From: a virus
Lineage: Duplodnaviria; Heunggongvirae; Uroviricota; Caudoviricetes
IMG/VR virus record: IMGVR_UViG_650377933_000002
Length of the DNA stretch: 55,306 bases
Strand: one strand, 5' to 3'
Below, piece after piece: positions 11,036 to 39,395 of this stretch; position 1 is the stretch's first letter, and each line of letters starts with the position of its first letter. Both the position numbers and the translations under genes were made by a program. The notes beneath the pieces are model-generated. The model worked only from the letters and a program-made list of their open reading frames with translations, was not told the DNA's origin and searched no databases.

Positions 11036-12562
11036 ATGAAAAAAGCCATAGCATATATGCGATTTTCATCACCAGGTCAGATGTCTGGTGATTCATTAAA
11101 CCGCCAGAGAAGGCTTATTACTGAATGGCTAAAGGTAAATAGTGATTATTACCTTGATACCGTAACGTATGAAGATTTGGGGTTAAGCGCATTCAATGGA
11201 AAGCATGCACAATCAGGAGCTTTTTCGGAATTTTTAGATGCTATAGAACATGGTTACATATTGCCAGGGACTACATTGTTAGTTGAAAGTCTGGACAGAC
11301 TTTCAAGAGAAAAAGTCGGTGAAGCGATTGAGCGTCTGAAATTGATTTTGAATCACGGTATTGATGTTATAACTCTTTGCGATAATACAGTCTATAATAT
11401 AGACTCATTGAATGAGCCATATTCATTAATAAAAGCCATACTTATAGCACAAAGGGCAAATGAAGAAAGCGAGATAAAGTCAAGTCGGGTTAAATTATCA
11501 TGGAAGAAAAAACGGCAGGATGCACTGGAATCAGGCACGATTATGACGGCGTCTTGTCCGAGATGGCTCTCATTGGATGACAAAAGAACAGCTTTTATTC
11601 CAGACCCCGACAGGGTGAAAACGATTGAGCTAATTTTTAAACTCAGGATGGAAAGGCGATCATTGAATGCAATAGCTAAGTATTTAAATGATCATGCTGT
11701 AAAAAATTTTTCAGGAAAAGAAAGTGCATGGGGGCCTTCTGTAATTGAAAAATTATTAGCGAATAAAGCTCTGATAGGTATATGCGTACCTTCATATCGT
11801 GCAAGAGGGAAAGGGATAAGTGAAATCGCTGGCTATTATCCCAGAGTCATATCAGATGATTTGTTTTACGCTGTACAGGAAATTCGGTTGGCACCTTTTG
11901 GTATTAGCAATAGTAGCAAGAATCCTATGCTAATAAATCTACTTCGAACAGTTATGAAGTGTGAGGCTTGTGGTAATACCATGATTGTTCATGCGGTATC
12001 TGGACGTTTGCATGGCTATTATGTTTGTCCGATGAGAAGATTACATCGATGTGACAGGCCATCAATAAAAAGAGATTTGGTTGATTATAATATCATTAAT
12101 GAATTGCTTTTTAATTGTAGCAAAATTCAACCAGTTGAAAACAAGAAAGATGCTAATGAAACTTTAGAGTTAAAAATTATTGAGCTTCAGATGAAAATTA
12201 ATAATTTAATCGTTGCATTGTCTGTCGCGCCTGAAGTTACCGCTATAGCAGAGAAAATAAGACTATTAGATAAGGAATTACGAAGGGCTTCGGTATCATT
12301 AAAAACTTTGAAGAGTAAAGGGGTGAGTTCACTTGGTGATTTTCATGCTATTGATTTAACCAGTAAAAATGGGCGAGAGCTATGTCGTACACTTGCCTAT
12401 AAAATATTCGAAAAAATTATAATTAATACAGATAATAAAACCTGTGATATCTATTTTATGAATGGCATTGTTTTTAAACACTATCCTTTAATGAAAGTAA
12501 TATCCGCCCAGCAGGCGATAAGTACTCTTAAATATATGGTTGATGGTGAGGTTTATTTTTGA
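11036..12562 (+). CDS. ybcK: serine recombinase (resolvase N-terminal domain + recombinase domain), DLP12 YbcK-like
   Basis: 508-aa ORF; N-terminal resolvase-like region (..AYMRFSSPGQMSGDSLNRQRRLI..LLVESLDRLSRE..), Cys-rich zinc-ribbon-like segment and coiled-coil C-terminus; AT-rich; adjacent to emrE as in DLP12. Confidence 0.8.
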   Translation: MKKAIAYMRFSSPGQMSGDSLNRQRRLITEWLKVNSDYYLDTVTYEDLGLSAFNGKHAQSGAFSEFLDAIEHGYILPGTTLLVESLDRLSREKVGEAIERLKLILNHGIDVITLCDNTVYNIDSLNEPYSLIKAILIAQRANEESEIKSSRVKLSWKKKRQDALESGTIMTASCPRWLSLDDKRTAFIPDPDRVKTIELIFKLRMERRSLNAIAKYLNDHAVKNFSGKESAWGPSVIEKLLANKALIGICVPSYRARGKGISEIAGYYPRVISDDLFYAVQEIRLAPFGISNSSKNPMLINLLRTVMKCEACGNTMIVHAVSGRLHGYYVCPMRRLHRCDRPSIKRDLVDYNIINELLFNCSKIQPVENKKDANETLELKIIELQMKINNLIVALSVAPEVTAIAEKIRLLDKELRRASVSLKTLKSKGVSSLGDFHAIDLTSKNGRELCRTLAYKIFEKIIINTDNKTCDIYFMNGIVFKHYPLMKVISAQQAISTLKYMVDGEVYF

Positions 12563-28073: not shown

Positions 28074-28349
28074 ATGTCTGTATATACAACTGCAGAATTA
28101 CTGGCATCGACCCAGCATCACTTTAAGTTCGATCCGCTGTTTCTGCGCCTGTTTTTCCGTGAAACCTATCCTTTCACCACGGAAAAAGTCTATCTCTCAC
28201 AAATTCCGGGACTGGTAAACATGGCGCTGTACGTTTCGCCGATTGTTTCCGGTGAGGTTATCCGATCCCGTGGCGGCTCCACCTCTGAATTTACGCCGGG
28301 TTATGTCAAACCCAAGCACTTAGCATGGCTTTCTGAGGCTTTCGTGTAG
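28074..28349 (+). pseudogene. E: major capsid protein E, 5' fragment (interrupted by insertion)
   Basis: First 82 codons match lambda E (MS.YTTA.LLA.....FKFDPLFLRLFFRE.YPFTTEKVYLSQIPGLVNMALYVSPIVSGEVIRSRGGSTSEFTPGYVKPKH), then 9 unrelated codons and a stop; the remainder of E resumes at 39388. Confidence 0.9.
28309..28318. repeat. left copy of 10-bp direct repeat AACCCAAGCA (candidate att core)
   Basis: Identical 10-mer at both E/insert junctions (28309..28318 and 39386..39395). Confidence 0.65.
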
Positions 28350-28481
28350 TTGCTGGTTTTTACACTTAATCTTTTGATAATAAAGAATAAGTTTATCTGG
28401 CGCTTTCACTGAATTTTCCTCGTTATCTGTGTGTTGCAATCATCTCTGTATTGCAGCTTGTATTGCTTTTTGGGGCTAAAA

Positions 28482-29717
28482 ATGGCTGGCGAGAACAAAC
28501 TGAGCGACAAAGCGCTTAAAGGATATCTGGGGAAACCCAGAGAAAAGCAGATCACCATTGCTGATGGAAAGGGGCTTTCTATTCGTGTGAGTACTAAAGG
28601 GGCTGTGAGCTTTGTTTTCTTCTACAGGTTAGCAGGTGGCCGGGATGCTCCGGTCTGGCTAACGTTGGGTAAATATCCTGATATGTCACTCAAACAGGCA
28701 AGGGAAAAGCGCGACGAGTGCCGTGGTTGGTTGGCTGACAAACGTGATCCGCGTATCCAGATTAAGATTCAGGCTGAAGAACGCTTAAAGCCGGTCACAG
28801 TGGAGGATGCACTAAATTACTGGTATGAAAATTACTGTAAGGTGCGTCGTAAAACTCATGCTGTAACGCTTGGCAGATTTCGAAAGCATATCTTTCCCTA
28901 TATCGGTCATTTGCCCGTAAATGACACTCACCTATATGAATGGCTGGACTGTTTTGACCGAATTAAACGTAATGCACCAGTTATGGCGGCGTATGTTTTT
29001 TCTGACACTAAATTAGCTCTTCGTTTTTGTCGGGTACGCCAGTACGCGACGTGTGATGCTTTAAAGGATTTGCGCATGAGTGATGTGGGGCAGATTGCAG
29101 GTAAGCGGGATCGGGTTCTGGATGAAGCCGAACTGGGCCAGCTCTGGAAGGCAATTTTTGTCGAGCCTGATTTAAAACTAATGTCTGAATACACGCGAAA
29201 AATGTTTGTGCTTTGTACAGTATTTGGATGTCGAATGAGTGAAGCCCGATTATCTGAATGGAGCGAATGGGATCTCGAAAGTTGGGTTTGGACTGTACCA
29301 AAAGATCACTCAAAAACTGGTGTTGAAATCGTCAGACCAGTACCTGAAATTCTACGACAGTGGGTAACGGATGTTCACGAAGAGACAAAACATACTGGTT
29401 ATGTGCTGGGAAGTCTGCGAATTAGAGAAAGCGTAAGCAAGATTGGGGGGAAAATCGGTAAACGTTTGGGCCATGAAAAACAATGGTCACTACACGACCT
29501 TAGAAGAACGCTATCTACTCATCTAAGTGATCTCGGTGTTGAATTTTATGTAGTAGAACAACTGTTAGGCCATGCGCTACCTGGCGTGGCAGGTGTTTAC
29601 AACCGGAGTAAGTTTATGGCTAAAAAACTGGATGCTCTGGAACTCTGGACTACATATCTCAATAGCATCGCAGGTGCTGATTCAAAAGTGACAATCCTCA
29701 AACAAAAGGCTGGTTAA
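28482..29717 (+). CDS. int: P4-type tyrosine integrase of the inserted element
   Basis: ORF 28431..29717; plausible ATG at 28482 (MAGENKLSDKALKGYLGKP..); C-terminal catalytic region (..WSLHDLRRTLSTHLSDLGV....LLGHALPGVAGVYNRS..). Confidence 0.85.
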   Translation: MAGENKLSDKALKGYLGKPREKQITIADGKGLSIRVSTKGAVSFVFFYRLAGGRDAPVWLTLGKYPDMSLKQAREKRDECRGWLADKRDPRIQIKIQAEERLKPVTVEDALNYWYENYCKVRRKTHAVTLGRFRKHIFPYIGHLPVNDTHLYEWLDCFDRIKRNAPVMAAYVFSDTKLALRFCRVRQYATCDALKDLRMSDVGQIAGKRDRVLDEAELGQLWKAIFVEPDLKLMSEYTRKMFVLCTVFGCRMSEARLSEWSEWDLESWVWTVPKDHSKTGVEIVRPVPEILRQWVTDVHEETKHTGYVLGSLRIRESVSKIGGKIGKRLGHEKQWSLHDLRRTLSTHLSDLGVEFYVVEQLLGHALPGVAGVYNRSKFMAKKLDALELWTTYLNSIAGADSKVTILKQKAG

Positions 29718-29718
29718 C

Positions 29719-29946
29719 ATGAAAAAAATGGCAATTGTTGATAAAAAGGGTCTGGAGTACATTCCTAACATCGATCGTATGATCCGTGAGAAAGAATGTC
29801 GGGAGCTAACCACTCTTGCAAACAGCACACGCTGGAAGCTGGAGAAGGAAGGAAAATTTCCTAAGCGGATCAAGATTGGTTCCACTGCTGTTGCATATCG
29901 TCTTTCAGAAGTGCAGGCATGGATTCGAGGTGAGTGGGTAGTTTAA
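29719..29946 (+). CDS. alpA: AlpA-family transcriptional regulator/excisionase
   Basis: 75-aa ORF 1 nt after the int stop, with AlpA-like HTH (..RELTTLANSTRWKLEKEGKFPKRIKIGSTAVAYRLSEVQAWI..). Confidence 0.8.
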   Translation: MKKMAIVDKKGLEYIPNIDRMIREKECRELTTLANSTRWKLEKEGKFPKRIKIGSTAVAYRLSEVQAWIRGEWVV

Positions 29947-30015
29947 ATTATCTCAGAATAAAATATTATGAATTACTGATTTGAGAATTTGTACTCAAAT
30001 CAGTAATAACATTCT

Positions 30016-30552
30016 TTATAAGAGATTAAATCCAAATAAAGAGTAATCATATACCGGGGTGCATTGCATCCCACTGAATATGCTGATGTTTTTTTCTGTT
30101 TCTATCCTTTTTTCAATAAGTTGTTGTATATTTTTACAGTACAATTTGTGTGTGATGTTATTATCGTAAGCCTGATATAGCAACGTCAATGTTGACGCTA
30201 GGAAACATACAGATAAAATTAAAATAATATATGCAGTTTTTTTATTTTTTGTCCATGATCTATTTGTTTGTGAAATATAAAGAATTCTGAGGTGGATAAT
30301 GGTGAGAGACAATAGCAGGCCACTCAATAAAATAAGTATTGGGTTTGCGTATTTTATTAATGGTTGAGAGCAAAAAACTATTATAGCTCCTGTGACTGCG
30401 TATGAGAAAAAGGAGTGATTAAACTTCTTACTCCTTCTCTCAAGTATTTTAATTTCATCTTGCGTGGGGGTTTTAGATGCCTCTAATATAAGTTTATTGA
30501 ATTTTTCTGTTATCTTGTTTTTTGTGTTTGTGGCTATTTTTTTTAGATTCAT
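30016..30552 (-). CDS. hypothetical membrane protein (AT-rich accessory gene)
   Basis: 178-aa ORF in a very AT-rich segment; at least three hydrophobic helices (..VTGAIIVFCSQPLI..ILILLSGLLLSLTIIHL..AYIILILSVCFLASTLTLLY..). Confidence 0.45.
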   Translation of the reverse strand: MNLKKIATNTKNKITEKFNKLILEASKTPTQDEIKILERRSKKFNHSFFSYAVTGAIIVFCSQPLIKYANPILILLSGLLLSLTIIHLRILYISQTNRSWTKNKKTAYIILILSVCFLASTLTLLYQAYDNNITHKLYCKNIQQLIEKRIETEKNISIFSGMQCTPVYDYSLFGFNLL

Positions 30553-30902
30553 AGCATTCTAACTCCCTTAACTTATTTATTACTTTCTCTTTATGATAAG
30601 AGAGGGGAATGACTTGGTAAAGTGATTTGTCATTAATAATGATAATCCTTGCGATAAATATTTCTGCAAGTTATTTATCTGTTTGTTGCTATCTTGTTAA
30701 GCGTTGGGTGTGGTTTATGTTTGGAGTGACTTTATTTAATCGTGATTTTATGGATTTATATTTATATCCTGTAAGATAAGCGCATGTTAGTTCAGGAGTA
30801 GTGTCAGATAAAATTATTCGGAGTAGAACTACCTTTTCTGTTTATTGCCAGTATTTACATAGCAATGCGCCGTAGTTACTCACATCACGGCGCTGATACT
30901 AA

Positions 30903-31205
30903 TTATTCAGATTCTTTGGCTTTACGCCGCTGGAGTTCTTCACGAGCGACGGCTACGAGTTGCCCGATTTCCTCCGCTACCTTGATGCCGATTTGTTCGA
31001 CCTTAGCTAAGGCATCCAGTGAAGACACGAGGGGATTTTCTCCGCTTCCTTCTGCCTGGCGGCGGGCGATCTCACCGCGCATGGCGGTTACTATGAATCC
31101 GGCGTTGCTTTCGCCGTCCAGTTTTACGGATTCCATGCCCTCCATAACATCGTGGGGAACCCTGATCGTTGTCATTTGCGATTTTGCATTTTTGTATACA
31201 GACAT
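30903..31205 (-). CDS. putative transcriptional regulator of the element
   Basis: 100-aa ORF divergent from the replication operon and separated from it by an operator-like repeat region; charged coiled-coil-like C-terminus; function inferred from position only. Confidence 0.4.
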   Translation of the reverse strand: MSVYKNAKSQMTTIRVPHDVMEGMESVKLDGESNAGFIVTAMRGEIARRQAEGSGENPLVSSLDALAKVEQIGIKVAEEIGQLVAVAREELQRRKAKESE

Positions 31206-31413
31206 AGTTAATCACCAATTTGTTATGTGTATATCACTATACACAAAAGTGAGATATAAAAACACTTGCAATGTATATCACCACAATATAATGTATATCT
31301 CACATTATGGTCGCTATGTATCTCACAATGATCGATTCATAAAAACGACGAAACCCGGCAGTGCGCGAACACTAACCGGGCTTCTAACCAAACCGTTAAA
31401 CGAGGTAACGACT
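31206..31413. promoter_or_regulatory. divergent promoter region with repeated TGTATATC(A/T)CA operator-like motifs
   Basis: Four or more copies/inverted copies of GTGTATATCAC, GTGAGATATA, TGTATATCACC, TGTATATCTCACA, TGTATCTCACA within about 110 bp. Confidence 0.5.
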
Positions 31414-31704
31414 ATGGCTGGAACACAGCATACCCAAACTCACCCTAAATTTATATACATCTTTCTGGCGCTACATCGCGATCGCATAGCAGATGGAGCA
31501 ACTACGGTACATGTAGCCGCTGACACGCTGTTTATTCAGAAATGTGAAAACAATTTCATCTGGCGTTTTATCGCCCTGAGTACGGCACAACCGCGCGTGA
31601 TTACCATCGAGGCCACCAGCGAACAGGAAGCCCGCCAGCAATCCCCAACTGGCTGCGTGATGATATTCGCCGCCCGTATTCGTCAGGAGGTGTGCCATGA
31701 ATGA
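31414..31704 (+). CDS. hypothetical protein (first gene of the rightward operon)
   Basis: ORF 30865..31704 is long only because of an upstream GC-rich read-through; ATG at 31414 with GAGG RBS gives 96 aa; stop overlaps the next start. Confidence 0.4.
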   Translation: MAGTQHTQTHPKFIYIFLALHRDRIADGATTVHVAADTLFIQKCENNFIWRFIALSTAQPRVITIEATSEQEARQQSPTGCVMIFAARIRQEVCHE

Positions 31705-31921
31705 TCTTTATTTTAAAGTGCTGACACATGCTGAAAACGCGCTCGTTTGTGGCAAAAATATGCGAGAAATCTTATCAACCTGGCTTGATGGGACAACAAA
31801 TGCGGAACACGATGAACGGGATGCTAATTTAGCTGGAGCGTTAATTACGTTACTTGATCCTGTCATCAAAGAGCTGGATGAAGCTATAAAAATACACGAC
31901 CAGAGCTATACCGGAGAATAA
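31697..31921 (+). CDS. hypothetical protein
   Basis: 74-aa ORF, start overlapping the previous stop (translational coupling). Confidence 0.4.
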   Translation: MNDLYFKVLTHAENALVCGKNMREILSTWLDGTTNAEHDERDANLAGALITLLDPVIKELDEAIKIHDQSYTGE

Positions 31922-31923
31922 AA

Positions 31924-32211
31924 ATGAAAAATAAATTTTCTGGCTTTATTGCCAGCGGTCAAACTCATTCAAAAATCAGCCTTGGGGATATTTTCAAAGA
32001 TAGCTATGGCTATCGAGTAAAGATTATTTCGGTTGATGATCGCCGTGTCTCTTATTTGCGTGATGGTTATGATTTTGAATGTGTTATGCCGCGTCAGCAG
32101 TTCGAAAGAGATTTCATTCTGGTAAAAAATTGCAAGACAGATAATCAGAGGCGTTCCGCAGGCTATATCCGCAAAATTCGGGCAATGTTAGTTGCCGGAG
32201 GTAACAAATGA
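31924..32211 (+). CDS. hypothetical protein
   Basis: 95-aa ORF; stop overlaps the primase start. Confidence 0.4.
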   Translation: MKNKFSGFIASGQTHSKISLGDIFKDSYGYRVKIISVDDRRVSYLRDGYDFECVMPRQQFERDFILVKNCKTDNQRRSAGYIRKIRAMLVAGGNK

Positions 32212-34028
32212 AACGTGCTCCGAACTTAAAATACCAACCGCGCGACAAAATGACAGAAGTCATCATTTTTGCTGGCAGTGATGCCTGGAGCCATGCAAAA
32301 GAATGGAATGAATGGGCGGGTAAGCATATTGCAGCAGATGATACACCACCAGTCATTCTGGGTACGGAACAACTGGAAAACCTGGATGATATGCAAATTA
32401 TCGATGAAGGCCGTCATTATGTGCGTGTTTATCGTGCCGGAAAGATCGCAGAGAAAAATCTGACGAAGGTTGCGACATTACTTGCTATTGCAGGCGTAAA
32501 GGAAGCACGTTGTTACCGTAGCTTTGTTGATCGAGAGCCTGAAGACTGGACTCCGCGCCTTGTCGGCCTAAAAGCTGAAGCGGAGCATGGGGAAAGTCTG
32601 GTGATTGAACTGCCAGTGAAGAAGGCAGAGCGCAAAAATGACGAGCGTGCTTCATCTTTGGCGTTGAATCAGATGGGGGCCAGCCAGCGCGGTGAAGTTC
32701 TCCTGGCACATTACGGCGGCGAACTGGCAATCAATGCCGACTCTGACACCGTTCATCATTACAACGGCGTTGTATGGGAGCCGGTTCAGGATAAAGAGTT
32801 ACAGCGTGCTATGGCGCAGATTTTCATTGATGCGGAGATCAGCTATTCGCAGAACGCCATTAAATCGGCGGTAGATACCATGAAGTTAAGTTTGCCTGTA
32901 ATGGGGAATACAGCCCGTAACCTGATTGGATTCAGTAACGGGGTATTTGATACCAGAACTGGTAATTTTCGGGAGCATAACAAAAACGACTGGTTGTTAA
33001 TTGCCAGTGAATTACCTTTCAGCCCACCAGCAGAGGGGGAAACGCTGGCAACACATGCGCCGAATTTCTGGAAGTGGTTGCGCCGTTCGGTGGCTGAGAA
33101 TGACCGCAAGGCAGATCGCGTACTGGCGGCATTATTCATGGTGCTGGCGAACCGGTACGACTGGCAGTTATTCATTGAGGTAACAGGGCCGGGGGGAAGT
33201 GGTAAAAGTGTGATGGCGGAGATTTGCACCATGCTGGCGGGTAAGGCTAATACAGTATCAGCAAGCATGAAGGCGCTGGAAGATGCAAGGGAACGTGCGT
33301 TAGTGGTTGGCTTTTCGCTGATTATCATGCCGGATATGACCCGCTACGCTGGTGATGGGGCAGGGATTAAGGCCATTACAGGCGGTGACAAGGTGGCAAT
33401 TGACCCGAAACACAAAGCCCCCTATTCAACGCGTATTCCGGCAGTAGTGCTGGCGGTTAACAATAACGCCATGTCATTCAGTGACCGCAGCGGGGGGATC
33501 TCACGTCGTCGGGTGATATTCAATTTTTCGGAAGTTGTACCGGAGAACGAACGCGATTCGATGCTGGCGGAAAAAATAGAAGGTGAGCTGGCGGTAGTGA
33601 TTCGCCATCTGCTTACACGGTTTGCTGATCAGGACGAAGCCAGACGCCTGTTATATGAGCAGCAGAAATCTGAAGAAGCACTGGCGATAAAGCGAGAGGG
33701 GGATTCGCTGGTGGACTTCTGCGGCTATCTCATGGCATCGGTAATGTGTGATGGCCTGTTAGTGGGTAATGCTGAAATTGTGCCATTCAGCCCACGCAGG
33801 TATCTCTATCATGCCTATCTGGCTTATATGAGGGCACATGGGTTTGGTAAACCTGTAACACTGACGCGCTTCGGTAAAGATATGCCGGGGGCAATGGCGG
33901 AATATGGCAGGGAGTATATGAAACGGAAAACGAAGCACGGTTTGCGTTCAAACGTGACACTGACGGAGGAATCAGAAGACTGGATGCCATCATGTGTATC
34001 GGTCACTAATGACGATAGCAAAAATTAA
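32208..34028 (+). CDS. primase/helicase (P4-alpha-like, SF3-type P-loop NTPase)
   Basis: 606-aa ORF with GGAGG RBS; Walker A VTGPGGSGKS and downstream Walker B-like acidic stretch (LIIMPDMT); followed by an iteron array. Confidence 0.8.
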   Translation: MKRAPNLKYQPRDKMTEVIIFAGSDAWSHAKEWNEWAGKHIAADDTPPVILGTEQLENLDDMQIIDEGRHYVRVYRAGKIAEKNLTKVATLLAIAGVKEARCYRSFVDREPEDWTPRLVGLKAEAEHGESLVIELPVKKAERKNDERASSLALNQMGASQRGEVLLAHYGGELAINADSDTVHHYNGVVWEPVQDKELQRAMAQIFIDAEISYSQNAIKSAVDTMKLSLPVMGNTARNLIGFSNGVFDTRTGNFREHNKNDWLLIASELPFSPPAEGETLATHAPNFWKWLRRSVAENDRKADRVLAALFMVLANRYDWQLFIEVTGPGGSGKSVMAEICTMLAGKANTVSASMKALEDARERALVVGFSLIIMPDMTRYAGDGAGIKAITGGDKVAIDPKHKAPYSTRIPAVVLAVNNNAMSFSDRSGGISRRRVIFNFSEVVPENERDSMLAEKIEGELAVVIRHLLTRFADQDEARRLLYEQQKSEEALAIKREGDSLVDFCGYLMASVMCDGLLVGNAEIVPFSPRRYLYHAYLAYMRAHGFGKPVTLTRFGKDMPGAMAEYGREYMKRKTKHGLRSNVTLTEESEDWMPSCVSVTNDDSKN

Positions 34029-34039
34029 ACTTATGGAAT

Positions 34040-34275
34040 AACTGTTCACCACTGTTCACCCTGTCATAAATATCTTTTATATCAGTATATTATAGGGTGA
34101 ACAGTTATTTATGAACTGTTCACCAAACTATTCACTGTTCACCTTTTTGATTGTTTATTGAGCTTCAAGGGTGAACAGTAGTGAACAGTTGGTGAATAGT
34201 TTTTGTGAAACTGTTCACCCATTAACATTATGAATTAAAAGAGAAAATATCAAAAGGTGAACAGGTGAAGGGTTA
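34040..34275. repeat. iteron array (about 9 copies of CTGTTCACC in both orientations), candidate replication origin of the element
   Basis: ACTGTTCACC at 34041 and 34051, GGGTGAACAGTT at 34095, AACTGTTCACC at 34114, CACTGTTCACC at 34133, GGGTGAACAGTAGTGAACAGTTGGTGAATAG at 34169..34199, CTGTTCACCC at 34211, GGTGAACAGGTGAAG at 34257. Confidence 0.75.
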
Positions 34276-34315
34276 AAACGCAAAAATTTTAATTTACTGC
34301 TGTGAGATAAAGCCT

Positions 34316-34561
34316 ATGACAGCGAAGCACACAAAAAAATCACAATCGCACGCCCTTGATTTGACGGAACACTGGTTAAGGGTGTCGATAAAAATCATCG
34401 ACCGCAACGCCGGGGAAGGATACGCGAAAGCACATCCCGAACTGATTAGCGCATTCATGACAACGGCGGCTGCAAACTTTGCCACTCTGACCGAACGGGA
34501 GATTGCTGAAGCGGAGGAAGTGACAACAATCAATATTAAGTCCGGAGAGCAGGCAGCATGA
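34316..34561 (+). CDS. hypothetical protein
   Basis: 81-aa ORF; stop overlaps the start of the downstream SSB-like gene (ATGA). Confidence 0.4.
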   Translation: MTAKHTKKSQSHALDLTEHWLRVSIKIIDRNAGEGYAKAHPELISAFMTTAAANFATLTEREIAEAEEVTTINIKSGEQAA

Positions 34562-35007
34562 CGGCGCAAATATCAGTTTACGGGCGGTTGGTGGACGACC
34601 CGCAGACAAAACAGACCAGCAAGGGCACCCCCATGACGCTGGCGCGTATGGCGTTATCACTGCCCTGCAGTCAGTCGGATGACGGTCAGGCGACGATGTG
34701 GTTATCTGTCCTGGCGTTTGGCAGACAAGCCGACGCGCTGGCAAAGCATCACAAAGGCGAACTCCTGAGCGTGGCGGGTAATATGCAGGTGAGCCAGTGG
34801 ACTGGACAGAACGGTGAAACGCGGCAGGGCTGGCAGGTTATCGCAGACAGCGTAATCAGTGCGCGAACGGTGCGACCGGGCGGCAAAAAAGGTCAACAGG
34901 GTCAGGCTACTGACGCACTGAACAGAGCAAAACAACAGGCAGATCAGCAAGGAAGCCATCCACCAGTGGGAGATAATGAACAATGGGGAGATGATATTCC
35001 GTTTTAA
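34558..35007 (+). CDS. SSB-like single-stranded DNA-binding protein
   Basis: 149-aa ORF ending in the canonical SSB acidic tail ..DDIPF preceded by a Gly/Gln-rich linker. Confidence 0.7.
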   Translation: MTAQISVYGRLVDDPQTKQTSKGTPMTLARMALSLPCSQSDDGQATMWLSVLAFGRQADALAKHHKGELLSVAGNMQVSQWTGQNGETRQGWQVIADSVISARTVRPGGKKGQQGQATDALNRAKQQADQQGSHPPVGDNEQWGDDIPF

Positions 35008-35224
35008 ATATTGCCAATAAAAAAGGCCGGAAAAAAATAAATTTTCCGGCATGCTACATAAATCCCGACCAAAGGGAGTGAAGATATTAACACTAATTAT
35101 CCGCGCTGAAGTTGTTATCCCAAAACTTTATACAACATTGCACTCGGTTGCATGTATTCGCATGACAAATATCGGTGATAGCATATATCCACAATTATTT
35201 TTAATGAATGCAAAGAGGATGCGT

Positions 35225-36265
35225 ATGGTTGATTTATATTCGCCTACCCAGCTTGTACAGGTGGTTAATGCTGTAGATGTACAAAAACAACTAAATGCGT
35301 TGTTTACCAGTTTGTTTTTTACTCGCTCGGTAATGTTTGAATCGCGCGATATTATTCTTGATACAATCGACGATCCAAATATCCCAATTGCAGCGTTTTG
35401 TTCTCCTATGGTGGGTAGTAAAGTTTCACGTGACGAAGGGTACGAATCAAAAACAATTCGTCCAGGCTATATGAAGCCGAAAAGCAGCATTGATCCAAAT
35501 AAGTTAGCTGTGCGCCCTGCTGGTGTATCACCTGAGCAATACAATGCTTTTGGAGCGCGTAATATTAAAGTTAAACAGGCGATTGTAAATCAGGCTAAAG
35601 CTATTCGTGCACGTATTGAATGGCTTGCCGTTCAGGCAATCACAACGGGGAAAAATATCATTGAGGGCGATGGTATTGAACGTTATGAGCTGGACTGGAA
35701 TATTAAACCACAAAATATCATCACTCAGTCTGGCGGTGCTGAGTGGTCAGGTAAGGATAAAGAAACTTTTGATCCAAATGATGATATTGAGAGCTACGCA
35801 GAATTTAGTGAGGGCGTCACTAATATCATCATTATGGGCGGTAATGTATGGAAGAAATACCGTTCATTCAGAGCGATAAAAGAGGCTCTGGATACCCGTC
35901 GTGGTTCTAATTCCGAACTGGAAACGGCTCTTAAAGACCTTGGTGATTCGGTGAGTTTTAAAGGGTATATGGGCGATGTTGCGATTGTTGTATACAGCGG
36001 GCGTTATACCGACGAGGACGGAACTGAAAAACATTTCCTTGATCCTGATTTGATGGTGCTTGGCAATACGGCTCTTCAGGGGATTGTCGCCTATGGCGGT
36101 ATTCAGGATCCGGAGCTAATCCGAATGGGGCTGACTAAAGCCGAACTTGCACCGAAAAACTATATTGTGCCTGGTGATCCGGCTATTGAATATGTGCAGA
36201 CACATTCAGCACCACAGCCAATACCGGCCCGCATCAATCGTTTTGTTACCGTTCGCATTGGCTAA
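35225..36265 (+). CDS. lambda E-like major capsid protein encoded by the inserted element
   Basis: ORF 35051..36265; ATG at 35225 with AAGAGG RBS gives 346 aa; clear homology to lambda E (RPGYMKPKSSIDP / ITQSGGAEWSGKDKETFDPNDDIESYAE / DTRRGSNSELETALKDLGDSVSFKGYMGDVAIVVYSGRY versus lambda TPGYVKPKHEVNP / ITQSGGTEWSKRDKSTYDPTDDIEAYAL / DTRRGSNSELETAVKDLGKAVSYKGMYGDVAIVVYSGQY). Confidence 0.8.
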   Translation: MVDLYSPTQLVQVVNAVDVQKQLNALFTSLFFTRSVMFESRDIILDTIDDPNIPIAAFCSPMVGSKVSRDEGYESKTIRPGYMKPKSSIDPNKLAVRPAGVSPEQYNAFGARNIKVKQAIVNQAKAIRARIEWLAVQAITTGKNIIEGDGIERYELDWNIKPQNIITQSGGAEWSGKDKETFDPNDDIESYAEFSEGVTNIIIMGGNVWKKYRSFRAIKEALDTRRGSNSELETALKDLGDSVSFKGYMGDVAIVVYSGRYTDEDGTEKHFLDPDLMVLGNTALQGIVAYGGIQDPELIRMGLTKAELAPKNYIVPGDPAIEYVQTHSAPQPIPARINRFVTVRIG

Positions 36266-36274
36266 GGGGGAGCA

Positions 36275-36616
36275 ATGGCTACTCATTACACTGAACTCAT
36301 GGCTGGCACTGAAGCACTGGTGACTACGCTGGGGATATTTTCAGCTAATAAAGGGGTAATTCCTGCATTTACGCCACTGATGCAGGAAGATGCAACAGGT
36401 GCACTGGTGGTATGGGATGGTTCGAGCGTAGGTAAAGCGGTTTATGTTTCCGCTGTACAAATCGACACCGCGAAAAAAACACAGGCTCAGGTCTATAAGA
36501 CAGGTGTCTTAAATGTTGATGCTCTGAACTGGCCTGAGTCTGTAAAAGAACTGTCAGTAAAGATTGCAGCGTTTGTTGGCTCAGGTATTTCTGTTCAGCC
36601 GCTGGCTCGTGTGTAA
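36275..36616 (+). CDS. D-like head decoration protein encoded by the inserted element
   Basis: 113-aa ORF directly after the E-like gene; weaker similarity to lambda D (..ALVVWDGSSVGKAVYVSAV.. / ..AAFVGSGISV.. versus ..[19 protein letters not shown].. / ..[11 protein letters not shown]). Confidence 0.55.
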   Translation: MATHYTELMAGTEALVTTLGIFSANKGVIPAFTPLMQEDATGALVVWDGSSVGKAVYVSAVQIDTAKKTQAQVYKTGVLNVDALNWPESVKELSVKIAAFVGSGISVQPLARV

Positions 36617-36627
36617 AGGGGGATACA

Positions 36628-37011
36628 ATGCAGAATGATTACAATGACCTTAAGCCAATTGCCGAAATGATGTACCCGAATCCAGCTGTAGAGGAATTAA
36701 AAGCTATCGCTGACAAAATGTGTTTAAGCGAGCGCCTTGTTGATATGAATCAGGTGATGGAAATTACAACCCTGAGTCGGCGTACACTGCTAAACCTTGA
36801 GGCTAGTGGAGAGTTCCCGGAGCGTGTGCAGGTTACGGAAGGGCGTAAGGCCTGGTATTTAAGTGAAGTGATCGACTGGATAAATAATATTCCTCGCGCT
36901 TCTGAATATTGCCGCGTACCTGTCCCAAAAAAGCCAGATGCGGCGCTATGCCTCAAGATTGAGCGTGTACGCCGCAATGCACGGGATGGTCGCTATAAGC
37001 TGATTGGTTGA
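36628..37011 (+). CDS. AlpA-like HTH DNA-binding protein directly upstream of the element cos site
   Basis: 127-aa ORF; central AlpA-like motif (..MNQVMEITTLSRRTLLNLEASGEFPERVQVTEGRKAWYLSEVIDWI..). Confidence 0.5.
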   Translation: MQNDYNDLKPIAEMMYPNPAVEELKAIADKMCLSERLVDMNQVMEITTLSRRTLLNLEASGEFPERVQVTEGRKAWYLSEVIDWINNIPRASEYCRVPVPKKPDAALCLKIERVRRNARDGRYKLIG

Positions 37012-37019
37012 TGAAATTA

Positions 37020-37256
37020 GGGCCCGCTCTGGCTGGCGGGTCCTTTCCGGCGATCTGACAGGCTACGGGGCGTCAGGCGCGCAGTTTTTCTCTATTTATG
37101 GAAATTTTCCGGTTTAAGGCATTTCCGTTCTTCTTCGCCGTAACTTTATGTTTTTATTTAAAATACCCCCTGAAAAGAAAGGAAATGACAGGCGCTGAAA
37201 ACGGGCATTTTGGCCTCTGTCGTTTCCTTTCTCTGTTTTTGTCCGTGGAATGAACA
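37020..37256 (+). other. second cos-like site carried by the inserted element (divergent cosN, conserved cosB)
   Basis: About 215 bp homologous to the phage cos/Nu1 leader at 21901..22117; cosB side nearly identical (..TATTTATG.AAATTTTCCGGTTTAAGGC.TTTCCGTTCTTCTTCGCCGTAAC..GAAAAGAAAGGAAA.GACAGG.GCTGAAAACGGGC.TTTT.GCCTCTGTCGTTTCCTTTCTCTGTTTTTGTCCGTGGAATGAACAATG) but the cosN segment differs (ACGGGGCGTCAGGCGCGCAG versus ACGGGGCGGCGACCTCGCGG). Confidence 0.8.
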
Positions 37257-37451
37257 ATGGAAGTCAACAAAGATCAACTGGCTGACATTTTGGGCAAGAG
37301 TTGTGCAATACTTTTGTCAGACGTAAATATTTTTGAGGAACATTATTATATTGATGTAATTAGAGATATGTTTGATAGGACTAGAAATAAAGCAGACGCC
37401 TTAGTTATGTCAATTGCTGAAATAATAAAGGAAAATAGCAATGATAAATAG
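37257..37451 (+). pseudogene. Nu1 5' remnant fused to unrelated AT-rich sequence
   Basis: First about 12 codons resemble Nu1 (MEVNKDQLADILG versus MEVNKKQLADIFG) then diverge into AT-rich sequence; 64-codon ORF ends at a convergent terminator. Confidence 0.5.
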
Positions 37452-37453
37452 AA

Positions 37454-37477
37454 AAAAGCGGTCACGCGACCGCTTTT
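37454..37477. terminator. bidirectional intrinsic terminator between convergent genes
   Basis: AAAAGCGGTC ACG CGACCGCTTTT palindromic hairpin flanked by A-run and T-run. Confidence 0.65.
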
Positions 37478-37514
37478 ATTATTTGCAAGTTATTTTTTTG
37501 CTGGAGATAAACTA

Positions 37515-38063
37515 TTACTGTTCACCAATTTGCTCTCTAAACTGTGTACTGAACGTATCTAGTTGAGAGACAAATGAATGTGCATTTAAAAATTTATTAT
37601 AAATCTCTTCAGCTGTGCTTTCTAATACAAAAGTAGCATAATTATTATGTGCTAATTTATTTCTTAGCTCTCCGATTTCCATAAAATCAGAGATAGACTT
37701 GGTCAACTCTGTGCTTGATTTTACCTTCTCAATCATAAACTCTTTAAATTTTGGGCCAAAAAAGGAAAAAAACTGGTTTGCATTCCTTTTTTTCCAATCA
37801 AAGAGTGTATGATACTGCCTGGTTAGGGCCTTATTATCGATAAAATCGTGTGTAAGATTACATTGGCTTGGGTTAAGCATACAATGTATCTTAGTTACAA
37901 CTAAAGTTTCAAAATAGCTAGCACATGCTAATAGCATTACTTTTGAAAATTGTGATTTGTAATCATTAGCAAAACTAATCTCATTATGAGTTAGAAGAAA
38001 ATCATAATAACACTTATAGTTATTAAACATACTTTCAATAGAAGTATATCCCATATCCTCCAT
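37515..38063 (-). CDS. HEPN-like protein (Rx4H motif), downstream gene of the DUF262 operon
   Basis: ORF 37515..38096 (GTG); ATG at 38063 lies 4 nt after the upstream stop; C-terminal ..EIGELRNKLAHNNY.. fits the HEPN Rx4-6H motif; strongly AT-rich. Confidence 0.5.
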   Translation of the reverse strand: MEDMGYTSIESMFNNYKCYYDFLLTHNEISFANDYKSQFSKVMLLACASYFETLVVTKIHCMLNPSQCNLTHDFIDNKALTRQYHTLFDWKKRNANQFFSFFGPKFKEFMIEKVKSSTELTKSISDFMEIGELRNKLAHNNYATFVLESTAEEIYNKFLNAHSFVSQLDTFSTQFREQIGEQ

Positions 38064-38067
38064 TATT

Positions 38068-39231
38068 TTACATTCCCTCCAAAATTGTTCTTGCACGTTC
38101 TAGACGTCCAATTACATGCTCTCTTCTTGTTGTTTTATCAGTACTAAATGTCAGAAATTCAGGATCATTTTTAAGCTTATCGATGTAATTCACCGTCACT
38201 TGTCTTATTTTTAGATCTTTATCTTTAAATGAGTCATAAGTTGCAGCATAAAAAATTGACTCAAATAAAGTTATACTCATACGATTCCCACCAGTTCTGA
38301 AATTGATTTCATCAATTCCATCAACACTATCCATAAATTCATTCCATATATTACTAAATAAAGTTATGTCTTTAGTGTCGTAGTTTTTTGCATAATTTGA
38401 GAAATTGTTCAAAAAACCGCTAACTGAGCTTTTGTATTGAGATGTAAAAAGGGACATAGCAAATGTGCGCAATATCGCTTCAATATCACTCAATCGCATG
38501 TCAACAACATTTTTTGAAAGAATTTTTCTCCATGTCTTGTTTTCATTCAATGAAACAAGATTTGAAAGAAAGTCTGAGTGATATAAACTCATACGAATTT
38601 CTTGAGGAGAAAGGTTCATTCCCCCACTATTTAGGCGGTTAAATATTTCAAACATTGCACCATCTTCCGAATCTTGTGCAACCGGTTTGATTACCATATT
38701 TCGTATGGTTGCCAGATTTAAAGTGGTTTGAAATTCGTTTAATGTTTCATAGTTTTTCCCATTAAACTTGTTTTTTTGGGTGTCTGATAGACCATCAAGT
38801 TTTAGGTTGAACTTTGTGAAGTATTCATCATTGTGAAGAATGTTTTCTGGAATGTTTCCATTATCTTCAAAGATTTTTCTCAGTTCAGAACGTTTCTCTT
38901 TTCTAGGGAATACACCATTTACAAAGTAATAAAGGGTCATTAATCTCTGCTGACCATCTATCACTAAAAATTCATTTTTATCTTGTTCATATAAAAATAT
39001 TTGAGGTATAGGAAGGCCTATTAAAAGAGATTCAATGAGTTTTGATGCTCGTTTGATATCCCAAACATAATGCCTTTGAAAGTTAGGGATTTTAAAAACT
39101 TTTGATTTAATAAAACTTATAATTGTGATTATATTAAAATCATTGGGCGTAGTAGTAAGTTGAAACTCATCAATTGGATAGGATTCTGGCTCATCCTCGT
39201 ATTGCTTTTCTTCATAATCTTCTGGTTGCAT
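38068..39231 (-). CDS. DUF262 (ParB-like nuclease/NTPase superfamily) protein
   Basis: ORF 38068..39279 (GTG); ATG at 39231 (MQPEDYEE..) preceded by AAGGA; hallmark DUF262 motif ..FLVIDGQQRLMTLYYF..; strongly AT-rich. Confidence 0.7.
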   Translation of the reverse strand: MQPEDYEEKQYEDEPESYPIDEFQLTTTPNDFNIITIISFIKSKVFKIPNFQRHYVWDIKRASKLIESLLIGLPIPQIFLYEQDKNEFLVIDGQQRLMTLYYFVNGVFPRKEKRSELRKIFEDNGNIPENILHNDEYFTKFNLKLDGLSDTQKNKFNGKNYETLNEFQTTLNLATIRNMVIKPVAQDSEDGAMFEIFNRLNSGGMNLSPQEIRMSLYHSDFLSNLVSLNENKTWRKILSKNVVDMRLSDIEAILRTFAMSLFTSQYKSSVSGFLNNFSNYAKNYDTKDITLFSNIWNEFMDSVDGIDEINFRTGGNRMSITLFESIFYAATYDSFKDKDLKIRQVTVNYIDKLKNDPEFLTFSTDKTTRREHVIGRLERARTILEGM

Positions 39232-39385
39232 CGTGTCATCCTTTTTCTTCGTGAATATGGTTTTTAGACAAGTCCTCACTACACATATCTGTATTGCAGA
39301 AAGTATTGCAGTGATAGGAGTTGCGTAGATATATAAACCACAAAGCTAAGTGAAATCAAATAGTTCTTTCGGGATTGACTCATGT

Positions 39386-39395
39386 AACCCAAGCA
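39386..39395. repeat. right copy of 10-bp direct repeat AACCCAAGCA (candidate att core)
   Basis: Identical to 28309..28318; immediately followed by the in-frame continuation of E. Confidence 0.65.

Follow-up and report, generated by a model that had tools for sequence, protein, structure and literature searches.

ORF178 and its locus

The subject of this study is ORF178, an open reading frame (ORF) of 178 codons in the viral record IMGVR_UViG_650377933_000002 (Caudoviricetes). The window referred to below is this whole stretch of DNA, of 55,306 nucleotides. ORF178 lies near the integrase end of a phage satellite that splits the major capsid gene of a prophage, between the satellite's alpA gene and a gene for a small protein of the YlcI/YnfO family (hereafter ylcI). 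The gene and the features next to it are the following.

30016-30552, minus strand: ORF178 coding sequence, ATG start, 178 aa
30563-30569, minus strand: Shine-Dalgarno-like AAGGGAG, 10 nt 5′ of the ORF178 ATG, as read from the sequence
30593-30621, minus strand: candidate sigma-70 promoter TTTACC-17-TATCAT, 9 of 12 matches, about 40 nt 5′ of the ORF178 ATG
29972-30007: perfect AT-rich hairpin with a 14-bp stem, flanked by T-rich sequence on either side; it separates the stop codons of alpA and ORF178, which are convergent
30867-30893, minus strand: GC-rich hairpin with a poor U-tract, directly past the stop codon of ylcI
29938-31360: variable block (dynamic or 'Bro' zone, 5′ hotspot); similarity to sister satellites ends at 29937/29938 and returns at 31361 or 31549

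ORF178 is a real gene. Stop codons are frequent in the interval between alpA and ylcI because its DNA is so AT-rich, and 2000 dinucleotide-preserving shuffles of this 956-bp region never produced an ORF as long as 178 codons (the mean was 56 and the maximum 164). At the base composition of the coding strand of ORF178, the probability of finding 178 open codons is about 7e-7. Its homologues keep the length, the hydrophobic helices and a pair of cysteines, so that the 178-aa ORF proposed in the initial annotation, where only the letters and a list of ORFs had been considered, can be taken as genuine. As also stated there, the gene runs on the strand opposite to int and alpA. The further claim that it occupies the most AT-rich part of the element holds nearly, but not strictly: GC content is 30.5% in ORF178 and 42.1% in the satellite, and about 4% of the equal-length satellite windows have a GC content below that of ORF178 (minimum 28.3%), all of them within the HEPN/DUF262 genes at the far end. 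The hairpin at 29972-30007 is likely a bidirectional terminator. At the other side of the gene, ORF178 is found 350 nt downstream of ylcI on the same strand, and the hairpin at 30867-30893 is possibly a partial terminator between the two.

That ORF178 is accessory cargo in a variable slot is well supported. Similarity to the sister satellites ends nine bases before the alpA stop codon. A megablast search of 5426 complete E. coli genomes detected int-alpA in 178 of them and ORF178 in 67 of these (about 38%), always paired with the same ylcI allele. The gene is intact, with its 178 aa, in nearly all of these 67 genomes and of 21 viral contigs, on two replication-module backgrounds; the 21 IMG/VR loci of E. 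coli type all show the arrangement int-alpA-ORF178-ylcI, on two primase backgrounds. In sister satellites, the same block has been exchanged for unrelated genes, which encode DUF2971, TIR, SWIM-finger or unnamed 241-305 aa proteins, accompanied by a reverse-strand gene for a small YlcI-like or 'HicB-like' protein. These data bear out the designation of ORF178 as an accessory gene in the initial annotation. The right end of the satellites is variable too, and holds HEPN+DUF262 genes, or a TIR, DUF2971 or Abi-family gene.

The slot corresponds to the published 'dynamic zone' of these satellites (PMC10111431). Since immune systems have been described at the 5′ or 3′ ends of phage-inducible chromosomal islands (PICIs; PMC11364771), ORF178 is located at an expected site for defence cargo; as a pointer to a defence role, this location is circumstantial.

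Within the block, a separate sub-slot seems to exist behind the YlcI-like or 'HicB-like' gene (loci L003 and L023-L026); it contains an ORF178-family gene, a gene for a 118-aa SWIM zinc-finger protein, a gene for a 241-aa unnamed protein, or nothing. In two loci a further unnamed gene separates alpA from the ORF178 homologue, namely in a Kosakonia satellite (L012, 10543-11154, 203 aa) and in a metagenomic contig (L049, 6536-7483, 315 aa). Neither product has a Pfam match. Because this extra gene stands beside the homologue, the 5′ slot can hold two cargo genes.

The ORF178 protein and its family

A Kyte-Doolittle scan of ORF178 gives hydrophobic segments at residues 48-66 approximately (weaker, 1.6), 71-92 and 106-128, in agreement with the hydrophobic helices described in the initial annotation, and three such segments are present in all full-length members of the family. 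Several polar residues are found within these transmembrane (TM) helices. The N-terminus (about 47 aa, predicted to be cytoplasmic) is rich in K/R. Loop 2 is K/R-rich throughout the family, acidic residues being found there in just one full-length member. Topology prediction, suggested as a check in that annotation, makes ORF178 an inner-membrane protein with three TM helices in N-in/C-out orientation; it follows the positive-inside rule, as loop 2 is K/R-rich. The C-terminal 50 residues or so would then be in the periplasm, where a disulfide can form. Two regions of the protein deserve separate mention.

30055-30165, minus strand (codons 130-166): conserved C-terminal motif HDxxCxxLQ...EKNxxIFxxMxCR, which holds the Cys pair, predicted to face the periplasm
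30193-30312, minus strand (codons 81-120): hyperdivergent patch comprising the end of TM2, cytoplasmic loop 2 and TM3, from the comparison of E. coli alleles

To C139 and C164, which are invariant in the C-terminal region, one allele adds a third cysteine. AlphaFold2 modelled ORF178 with a confidence (predicted local distance difference test) of 43 when near-identical sequences only were supplied, and of 83 with a diverse alignment. The model is all-alpha, with helices at residues 3-26, 31-66, 71-94, 104-147 and 152-161, and a disulfide between C139 and C164 probably holds its C-terminal helical hairpin together. The most conserved parts are the TM1-TM2 turn (mean 0.75), which is predicted to be short and periplasmic, and the C-terminal domain (0.51); the cytoplasmic N-terminus and loop 2 score lowest (about 0.3). 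As the two peaks fall on the predicted periplasmic side of the membrane, the constrained surface of ORF178 would be the predicted periplasmic one.

The family is small. A word-indexed search returned solely E. coli copies of ORF178, with at least 82% identity, and exhaustive searching of 1.84 billion cluster representatives with HMMER returned 11 clusters, defined at 50% identity, at E <= 1e-3. In 10 of the 11, identity to ORF178 is 24-37% over the matched stretches and 21-34% over the full length, and the proteins are mostly 148-175 aa long. Residues P71, G78, C139, Q143, F159 and C164 are invariant in the family, and a QPxxKxxNP motif is located between family helices 1 and 2.

Scans of ORF178 and 15 family members against Pfam, PHROGs, NCBIfam and PADLOC gave scattered sub-threshold matches, none of them common to more than three members. 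Comparison of the family profile with PDB sequences gave nothing, and fold searches retrieved generic helical hairpins only. Three more specific identities were considered and discarded. A SLATT-like lead (DUF4231, Saf_2TM) was dropped as noise, with E about 0.04 and 14-15 bits against cut-offs of 25-30 in one of the 15 members; a cyclase or SAVED neighbour was found in none of the examined contexts of ORF178 or its homologues. As for a holin, no Pfam holin match was obtained, a PHROG holin/anti-holin match appeared in one of the 15 members at E = 0.03, and the neighbours are alpA and ylcI. With respect to immunity to pore-forming colicins or bacteriocins, Pfam gave no match, and the gene had no toxin gene next to it in any context, be it satellite, prophage, plasmid or chromosome. 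The family is uncharacterised, and is without detectable relatives among exclusion, defence, holin and immunity proteins.

Comparison of E. coli alleles indicates how ORF178 evolves. The ratio of nonsynonymous (dN) to synonymous (dS) substitution rates is 0.1-0.2 for residues 1-80 and at most 0.2 for residues 121-178, with zero substitutions in the latter in one allele pair. Outside the variable patch, ORF178 is thus under purifying selection. In the patch itself, dS and dN are both about 0.4 and nucleotide identity is 80-88%, and the module around it is 97-100% identical between alleles, non-coding spacer included. The patch looks like an imported divergent segment with little constraint beyond hydrophobicity; the alternative to a short recombination import is a diversification of TM2, loop 2 and TM3.

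The carrier satellite and the contexts of the homologues

Gene identities in the satellite were taken from the RefSeq annotation of an E. coli locus with 99.4-99.9% identity and from the junction sequences. The main features are given below.

28309-39395, plus strand: helper-embedded PICI (HE-PICI) of the '11capE' type, which interrupts the lambda-E-like major capsid gene of the lambdoid prophage near codon 82
28309-28318 and 39386-39395: 10-bp core direct repeat AACCCAAGCA at the satellite ends
28482-29717, plus strand: tyrosine integrase (int), of the integration module with AlpA
29719-29946, plus strand: AlpA, integration module
30903-31205, minus strand: small protein of the YlcI/YnfO family, 100 aa, divergent from the icd-like/primase operon
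35225-36265: the satellite's own capsid gene
36275-36616: satellite decoration gene
37515-39231, minus strand: 3′ hotspot cargo, HEPN and DUF262 proteins (PADLOC models PD-T4-2_B and PD-T4-2_A / NsnA)

The repeat flanks the element, and the capsid gene of the prophage is split into an N-terminal fragment that extends to about 28349 and a C-terminal fragment that starts at about 39400; the terms 'satellite' and 'int end' in the initial annotation were therefore correct. Genes are ordered as int and alpA (plus strand), ORF178 and ylcI (minus strand), icd-like, DUF4222, primase and single-stranded DNA-binding protein (SSB) genes, the satellite's own capsid and decoration genes, a second AlpA-like regulator and the HEPN and DUF262 genes (minus strand). 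The traits by which HE-PICIs (capE) are recognised are all found: capsid gene fragments with the 10-bp core at both element ends, int-alpA, a dynamic zone, a replication zone with primase and SSB, and a late zone with a capsid gene. Judging from its model matches (E = 2e-59 for NsnA), the pair of genes at the 3′ end is a recognised, PD-T4-2-like defence system within the same satellite as ORF178.

The element resembles the '11capE' HE-PICI of E. coli NRG857c (PMC10111431) in its length of 11 kb, its lambda-E-like capsid site, the 10-bp identity block, a capsid gene of its own and the zones Integration, dynamic ('Bro'), Replication and Late, in that order. The dynamic zone differs, being occupied by ORF178 and ylcI here and by a Bro-network gene there. 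Both the satellite type and the logic of its hotspots are already published. In that work (Tommasini, Mageeney and Williams 2023, PMC10111431), proteins lacking a Pfam assignment are treated as anonymous 'H' families and the ORF178 protein is not discussed.

Several other observations were made on the satellite. An Rfam scan gave nothing at the gathering score and no immunity RNA of the C4/isrK type. A sub-threshold match to the antisense RNA SymR (33.6 bits, gathering score 61) at 31347-31419 lies on the minus strand, opposite the 5′ end of the icd-like gene, which starts at about 31414. The 100 nt or so around it are among the few stretches with DNA-level conservation in the Kosakonia satellite (79.6%) and in locus L005 (90.8%), and may be a regulatory RNA or an operator region. 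Just 3′ of the primase gene, at 34039-34275, there are direct and inverted repeats with the motif GGTGAACAGTT, which also attracted spurious matches to Rfam microRNA families. These repeats are probably the satellite's replication origin, since in such PICIs the origin has been described downstream of pri. In E. coli IAI39 (L002, NC_011750.1, 9194-11768) the satellite is a decayed copy: its integrase is truncated by an IS3 element, its primase has an internal stop, and the left half of the helper prophage is gone, so that the satellite abuts a tRNA-Arg gene. ORF178 is intact in it.

Homologues of ORF178 occur in two further lineages of capE-embedded satellites, in the same place and orientation. 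In Kosakonia sp. S29 (L012), the satellite has a different replication module, and the homologue, 35% identical to ORF178, lies 66 nt 3′ of an unannotated 59-aa YlcI-like ORF. The metagenomic viral contig L049 represents a third lineage, with an integrase 92% identical, and its homologue (31% identity) lies 29 nt 3′ of a 61-aa DUF3950/YlcI-like ORF. Outside satellites, a homologue forms an opposite-strand insert of 34% GC between the head genes of a lambdoid prophage, and others are located beside a small integrase and umuDC. A Pantoea homologue belongs to an island remnant by ssrA, together with a D5-primase fragment and an HNH gene, and the plasmid search found one copy on a Pantoea megaplasmid, where the neighbours are metabolic only and uninformative. 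All copies have a GC content below that of their surroundings, and a conserved partner gene accompanies none of them. When ORF178 and the prophage homologue were compared by tblastn with 50,697 phage records, no match was obtained. Members of the ORF178 family move horizontally as single genes, are under constraint and are associated with mobile elements.

Superinfection exclusion and other possible functions

Our proposal, the likeliest of the readings considered here, which we nevertheless advance tentatively and regard as possible rather than probable, is that ORF178 is an envelope-acting superinfection exclusion protein, carried as cargo and expressed in the quiescent state. Exclusion or abortive infection, the functions considered in the initial annotation, would fit the location, the low GC content, the association with mobile elements and the predicted topology; the function itself we infer. 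As the gene lies on the same strand as ylcI, downstream of it, and is convergent with int-alpA, it would probably be transcribed in the quiescent satellite, from its own weak promoter, by read-through from ylcI past the weak hairpin, or by both. The conserved, periplasm-facing surface of the protein could then disturb the apparatus by which incoming phages deliver their genomes, or the inner-membrane factor that they use for entry, and the cell that harbors the composite of helper and satellite would be protected. A more specific version is doubtful, namely that the family is a new one of periplasm-facing, disulfide-stabilised exclusion proteins of helper-embedded satellites and prophages, which block genome entry by lambdoid phages or rival satellites and are co-expressed with a YlcI-type regulator. 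If it were true, an entry block without homology to SieA, Imm or gp15 would be encoded by a satellite, and both the patch at codons 81-120 and the presence of types of about 30% identity at one locus would reflect an arms race with phage delivery proteins.

Several points weigh against exclusion. The promoter call is weak, as 10 such matches were found where 6.7 are expected in AT-rich DNA, and a gene of 30% GC might be silenced in E. coli. No similarity in sequence or fold to proteins verified for exclusion or defence was detected: PADLOC-DB 2.0 (5027 models) gave zero matches at E <= 1 for ORF178 and all 15 members; alignment of the family profile to P22 SieA with hhalign yielded a probability of 0.1% (E = 0.5) and there was no PHROG match; the probability for P22 SieB was 0.35%, and a Pfam match of the SieB (PF14163) or RexB type was absent at E <= 10. 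Hotspot cargo is not always defensive, and the chromosomal copies of Pseudomonas are found without obvious mobile-element genes around them. Furthermore, in the near-identical strain L1PEag1 (L001, NZ_CP145513.1), ORF178 has a +1 frameshift in an A7 run, at about 12070-12100 (equivalent to about 30070-30090 of the window), which eliminates the C-terminal motif; the RefSeq product has 168 aa. Either the gene is dispensable in that strain or the frameshift is a homopolymer sequencing error.

The same frameshift, the truncated variants in databases (P0006-P0008), the very low GC content and the weak promoter prediction would also be accounted for if ORF178 were a decaying or silent hitch-hiker without current function in E. 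coli. This we consider highly improbable, given the intact 178-aa gene in nearly all carriers on two replication-module backgrounds, the purifying selection outside the variable patch and the motifs conserved deep into the family. A role in the life cycle of the satellite, either in lysis timing (holin/antiholin-like) or in membrane-based interference with the helper, would explain why three diverged lineages of capE satellites have the gene at the same position. Three TM helices are also found in class I holins, and one family member has the marginal PHROG match mentioned above. That match is not significant, however, and about 62% of the E. coli satellites, near-identical in other respects, lack ORF178, which lies on the strand opposite to the induced operons and has homologues outside satellites; its long soluble extensions and Cys pair are unlike those of holins, and no lysis cassette is nearby. 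A life-cycle function is accordingly very unlikely.

Two other explanations are unlikely to a lesser degree. Membrane effectors are common in defence systems, and ORF178 could be an abortive-infection or toxin-like effector that permeabilises or depolarises the inner membrane upon infection or upon loss of the YlcI-like protein; in the latter case the two genes would form an antitoxin-toxin-like pair. The tight spacing between the small gene and the TM gene in two satellite lineages (29-66 nt), the RefSeq label 'HicB family antitoxin' on some of the small proteins and the polar residues within the TM helices are consistent with this. But more than 1000 E. coli genomes have the YlcI-like gene and lack ORF178, and the small gene occupies the standard regulatory position in these satellites, so that it is not a dedicated partner; in E. 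coli the gap between the two genes is 350 nt with a hairpin, and the prophage, plasmid and chromosomal homologues stand alone. Conservation on the periplasmic side and the Cys pair are not expected of a simple pore-former triggered from the cytoplasm, and the SLATT/Saf_2TM matches, sub-threshold and confined to one member, are noise. Taken together, such an effector seems unlikely. Slightly less likely still is the possibility that ORF178 provides orphan immunity against an envelope-acting toxin (a pore-forming bacteriocin, or a type VI secretion system (T6SS) or contact-dependent effector), or is another membrane factor of host fitness unrelated to phages. Immunity to pore-forming colicins is typically conferred by small inner-membrane proteins that have three or four TM helices and periplasmic determinants, and some homologues are found within a few kb of a pyocin S gene, an Imm42 gene or a T6SS cluster. 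These neighbours are, however, neither adjacent nor conserved: the Pantoea copy lies in the ssrA-linked island remnant beside the T6SS cluster, not inside it, and the plasmid copy has solely metabolic neighbours. Pfam models of colicin or toxin immunity gave no match, and the sister cargo of the slot carries domains of the phage-defence type (TIR, DUF2971).

Phage satellites and prophages are now mined for immune genes by way of their variable slots. The class that such mining overlooks most often is that of single small membrane proteins, because these are without domains and match no models. ORF178 is a concrete candidate of this class, with a tiny family and one recurrent position in three diverged capsid-gene-embedded satellites, plus a prophage insert. 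Because it recurs at one locus and its conservation falls on the predicted periplasmic face, it stands out from the average hypothetical membrane protein as a sharper candidate, with nothing in it that would surprise a specialist, and it is best filed as a sequence-orphan among the accessory membrane-protein cargo of temperate elements. Should it exclude phages, a new family of exclusion proteins would be at hand, and helper-embedded satellites would guard the composite at the entry step; should it do nothing, it would be one more hypothetical membrane protein.

Comparison with known systems

With respect to the immune cargo of PICI 5′/3′ hotspots and of P4/P2 hotspots (PMC11364771; PMC9122126), ORF178 has in common a variable int-proximal slot in a Gram-negative PICI, sister satellites with TIR or DUF2971 genes in that slot and, here, a PD-T4-2-like pair at the other end. 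It differs from such cargo in that it matches no known or candidate defence family, and in that it lies on the reverse strand behind a YlcI-like gene, not on the forward strand after alpA.

The lambda rexA/rexB genes and HK97 gp15 are accessory 'moron' genes that are expressed in the lysogenic state. ORF178 resembles them as an accessory, low-GC gene with a membrane product, found behind a repressor gene or among late genes; one of its homologues is such an insert, on the opposite strand among prophage head genes. Homology to rexB or gp15 was detected neither with Pfam nor with PHROGs. RexB needs RexA, whereas ORF178 has no conserved partner, and HK97 gp15 (cited in PMC11364771) is a different protein with no detectable similarity to it.

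In phage P22, a terminator, the promoter PsieA and sieA come after the small repressor gene mnt; sieA lies on the strand opposite to the late genes and encodes a 164-aa inner-membrane protein that blocks DNA delivery (PMC10883804). SieA and ORF178 are alike in size (164 and 178 aa), in their multi-pass inner-membrane nature (predicted for ORF178) and in being encoded on the strand opposite to the neighbouring operon. Each gene follows a small repressor gene of DNA-binding type, from which a hairpin and its own promoter (a candidate one for ORF178) separate it, and each locus is occupied, in related elements, by types with identities of about 30% or lower. ORF178 differs in having no sequence or profile similarity to SieA, another helix layout, a C-terminal domain with a Cys pair and a satellite as carrier. 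Although the two proteins are not homologous, mnt-sieA of P22 may thus serve, by analogy of layout, as the closest working model for the ylcI-ORF178 arrangement.

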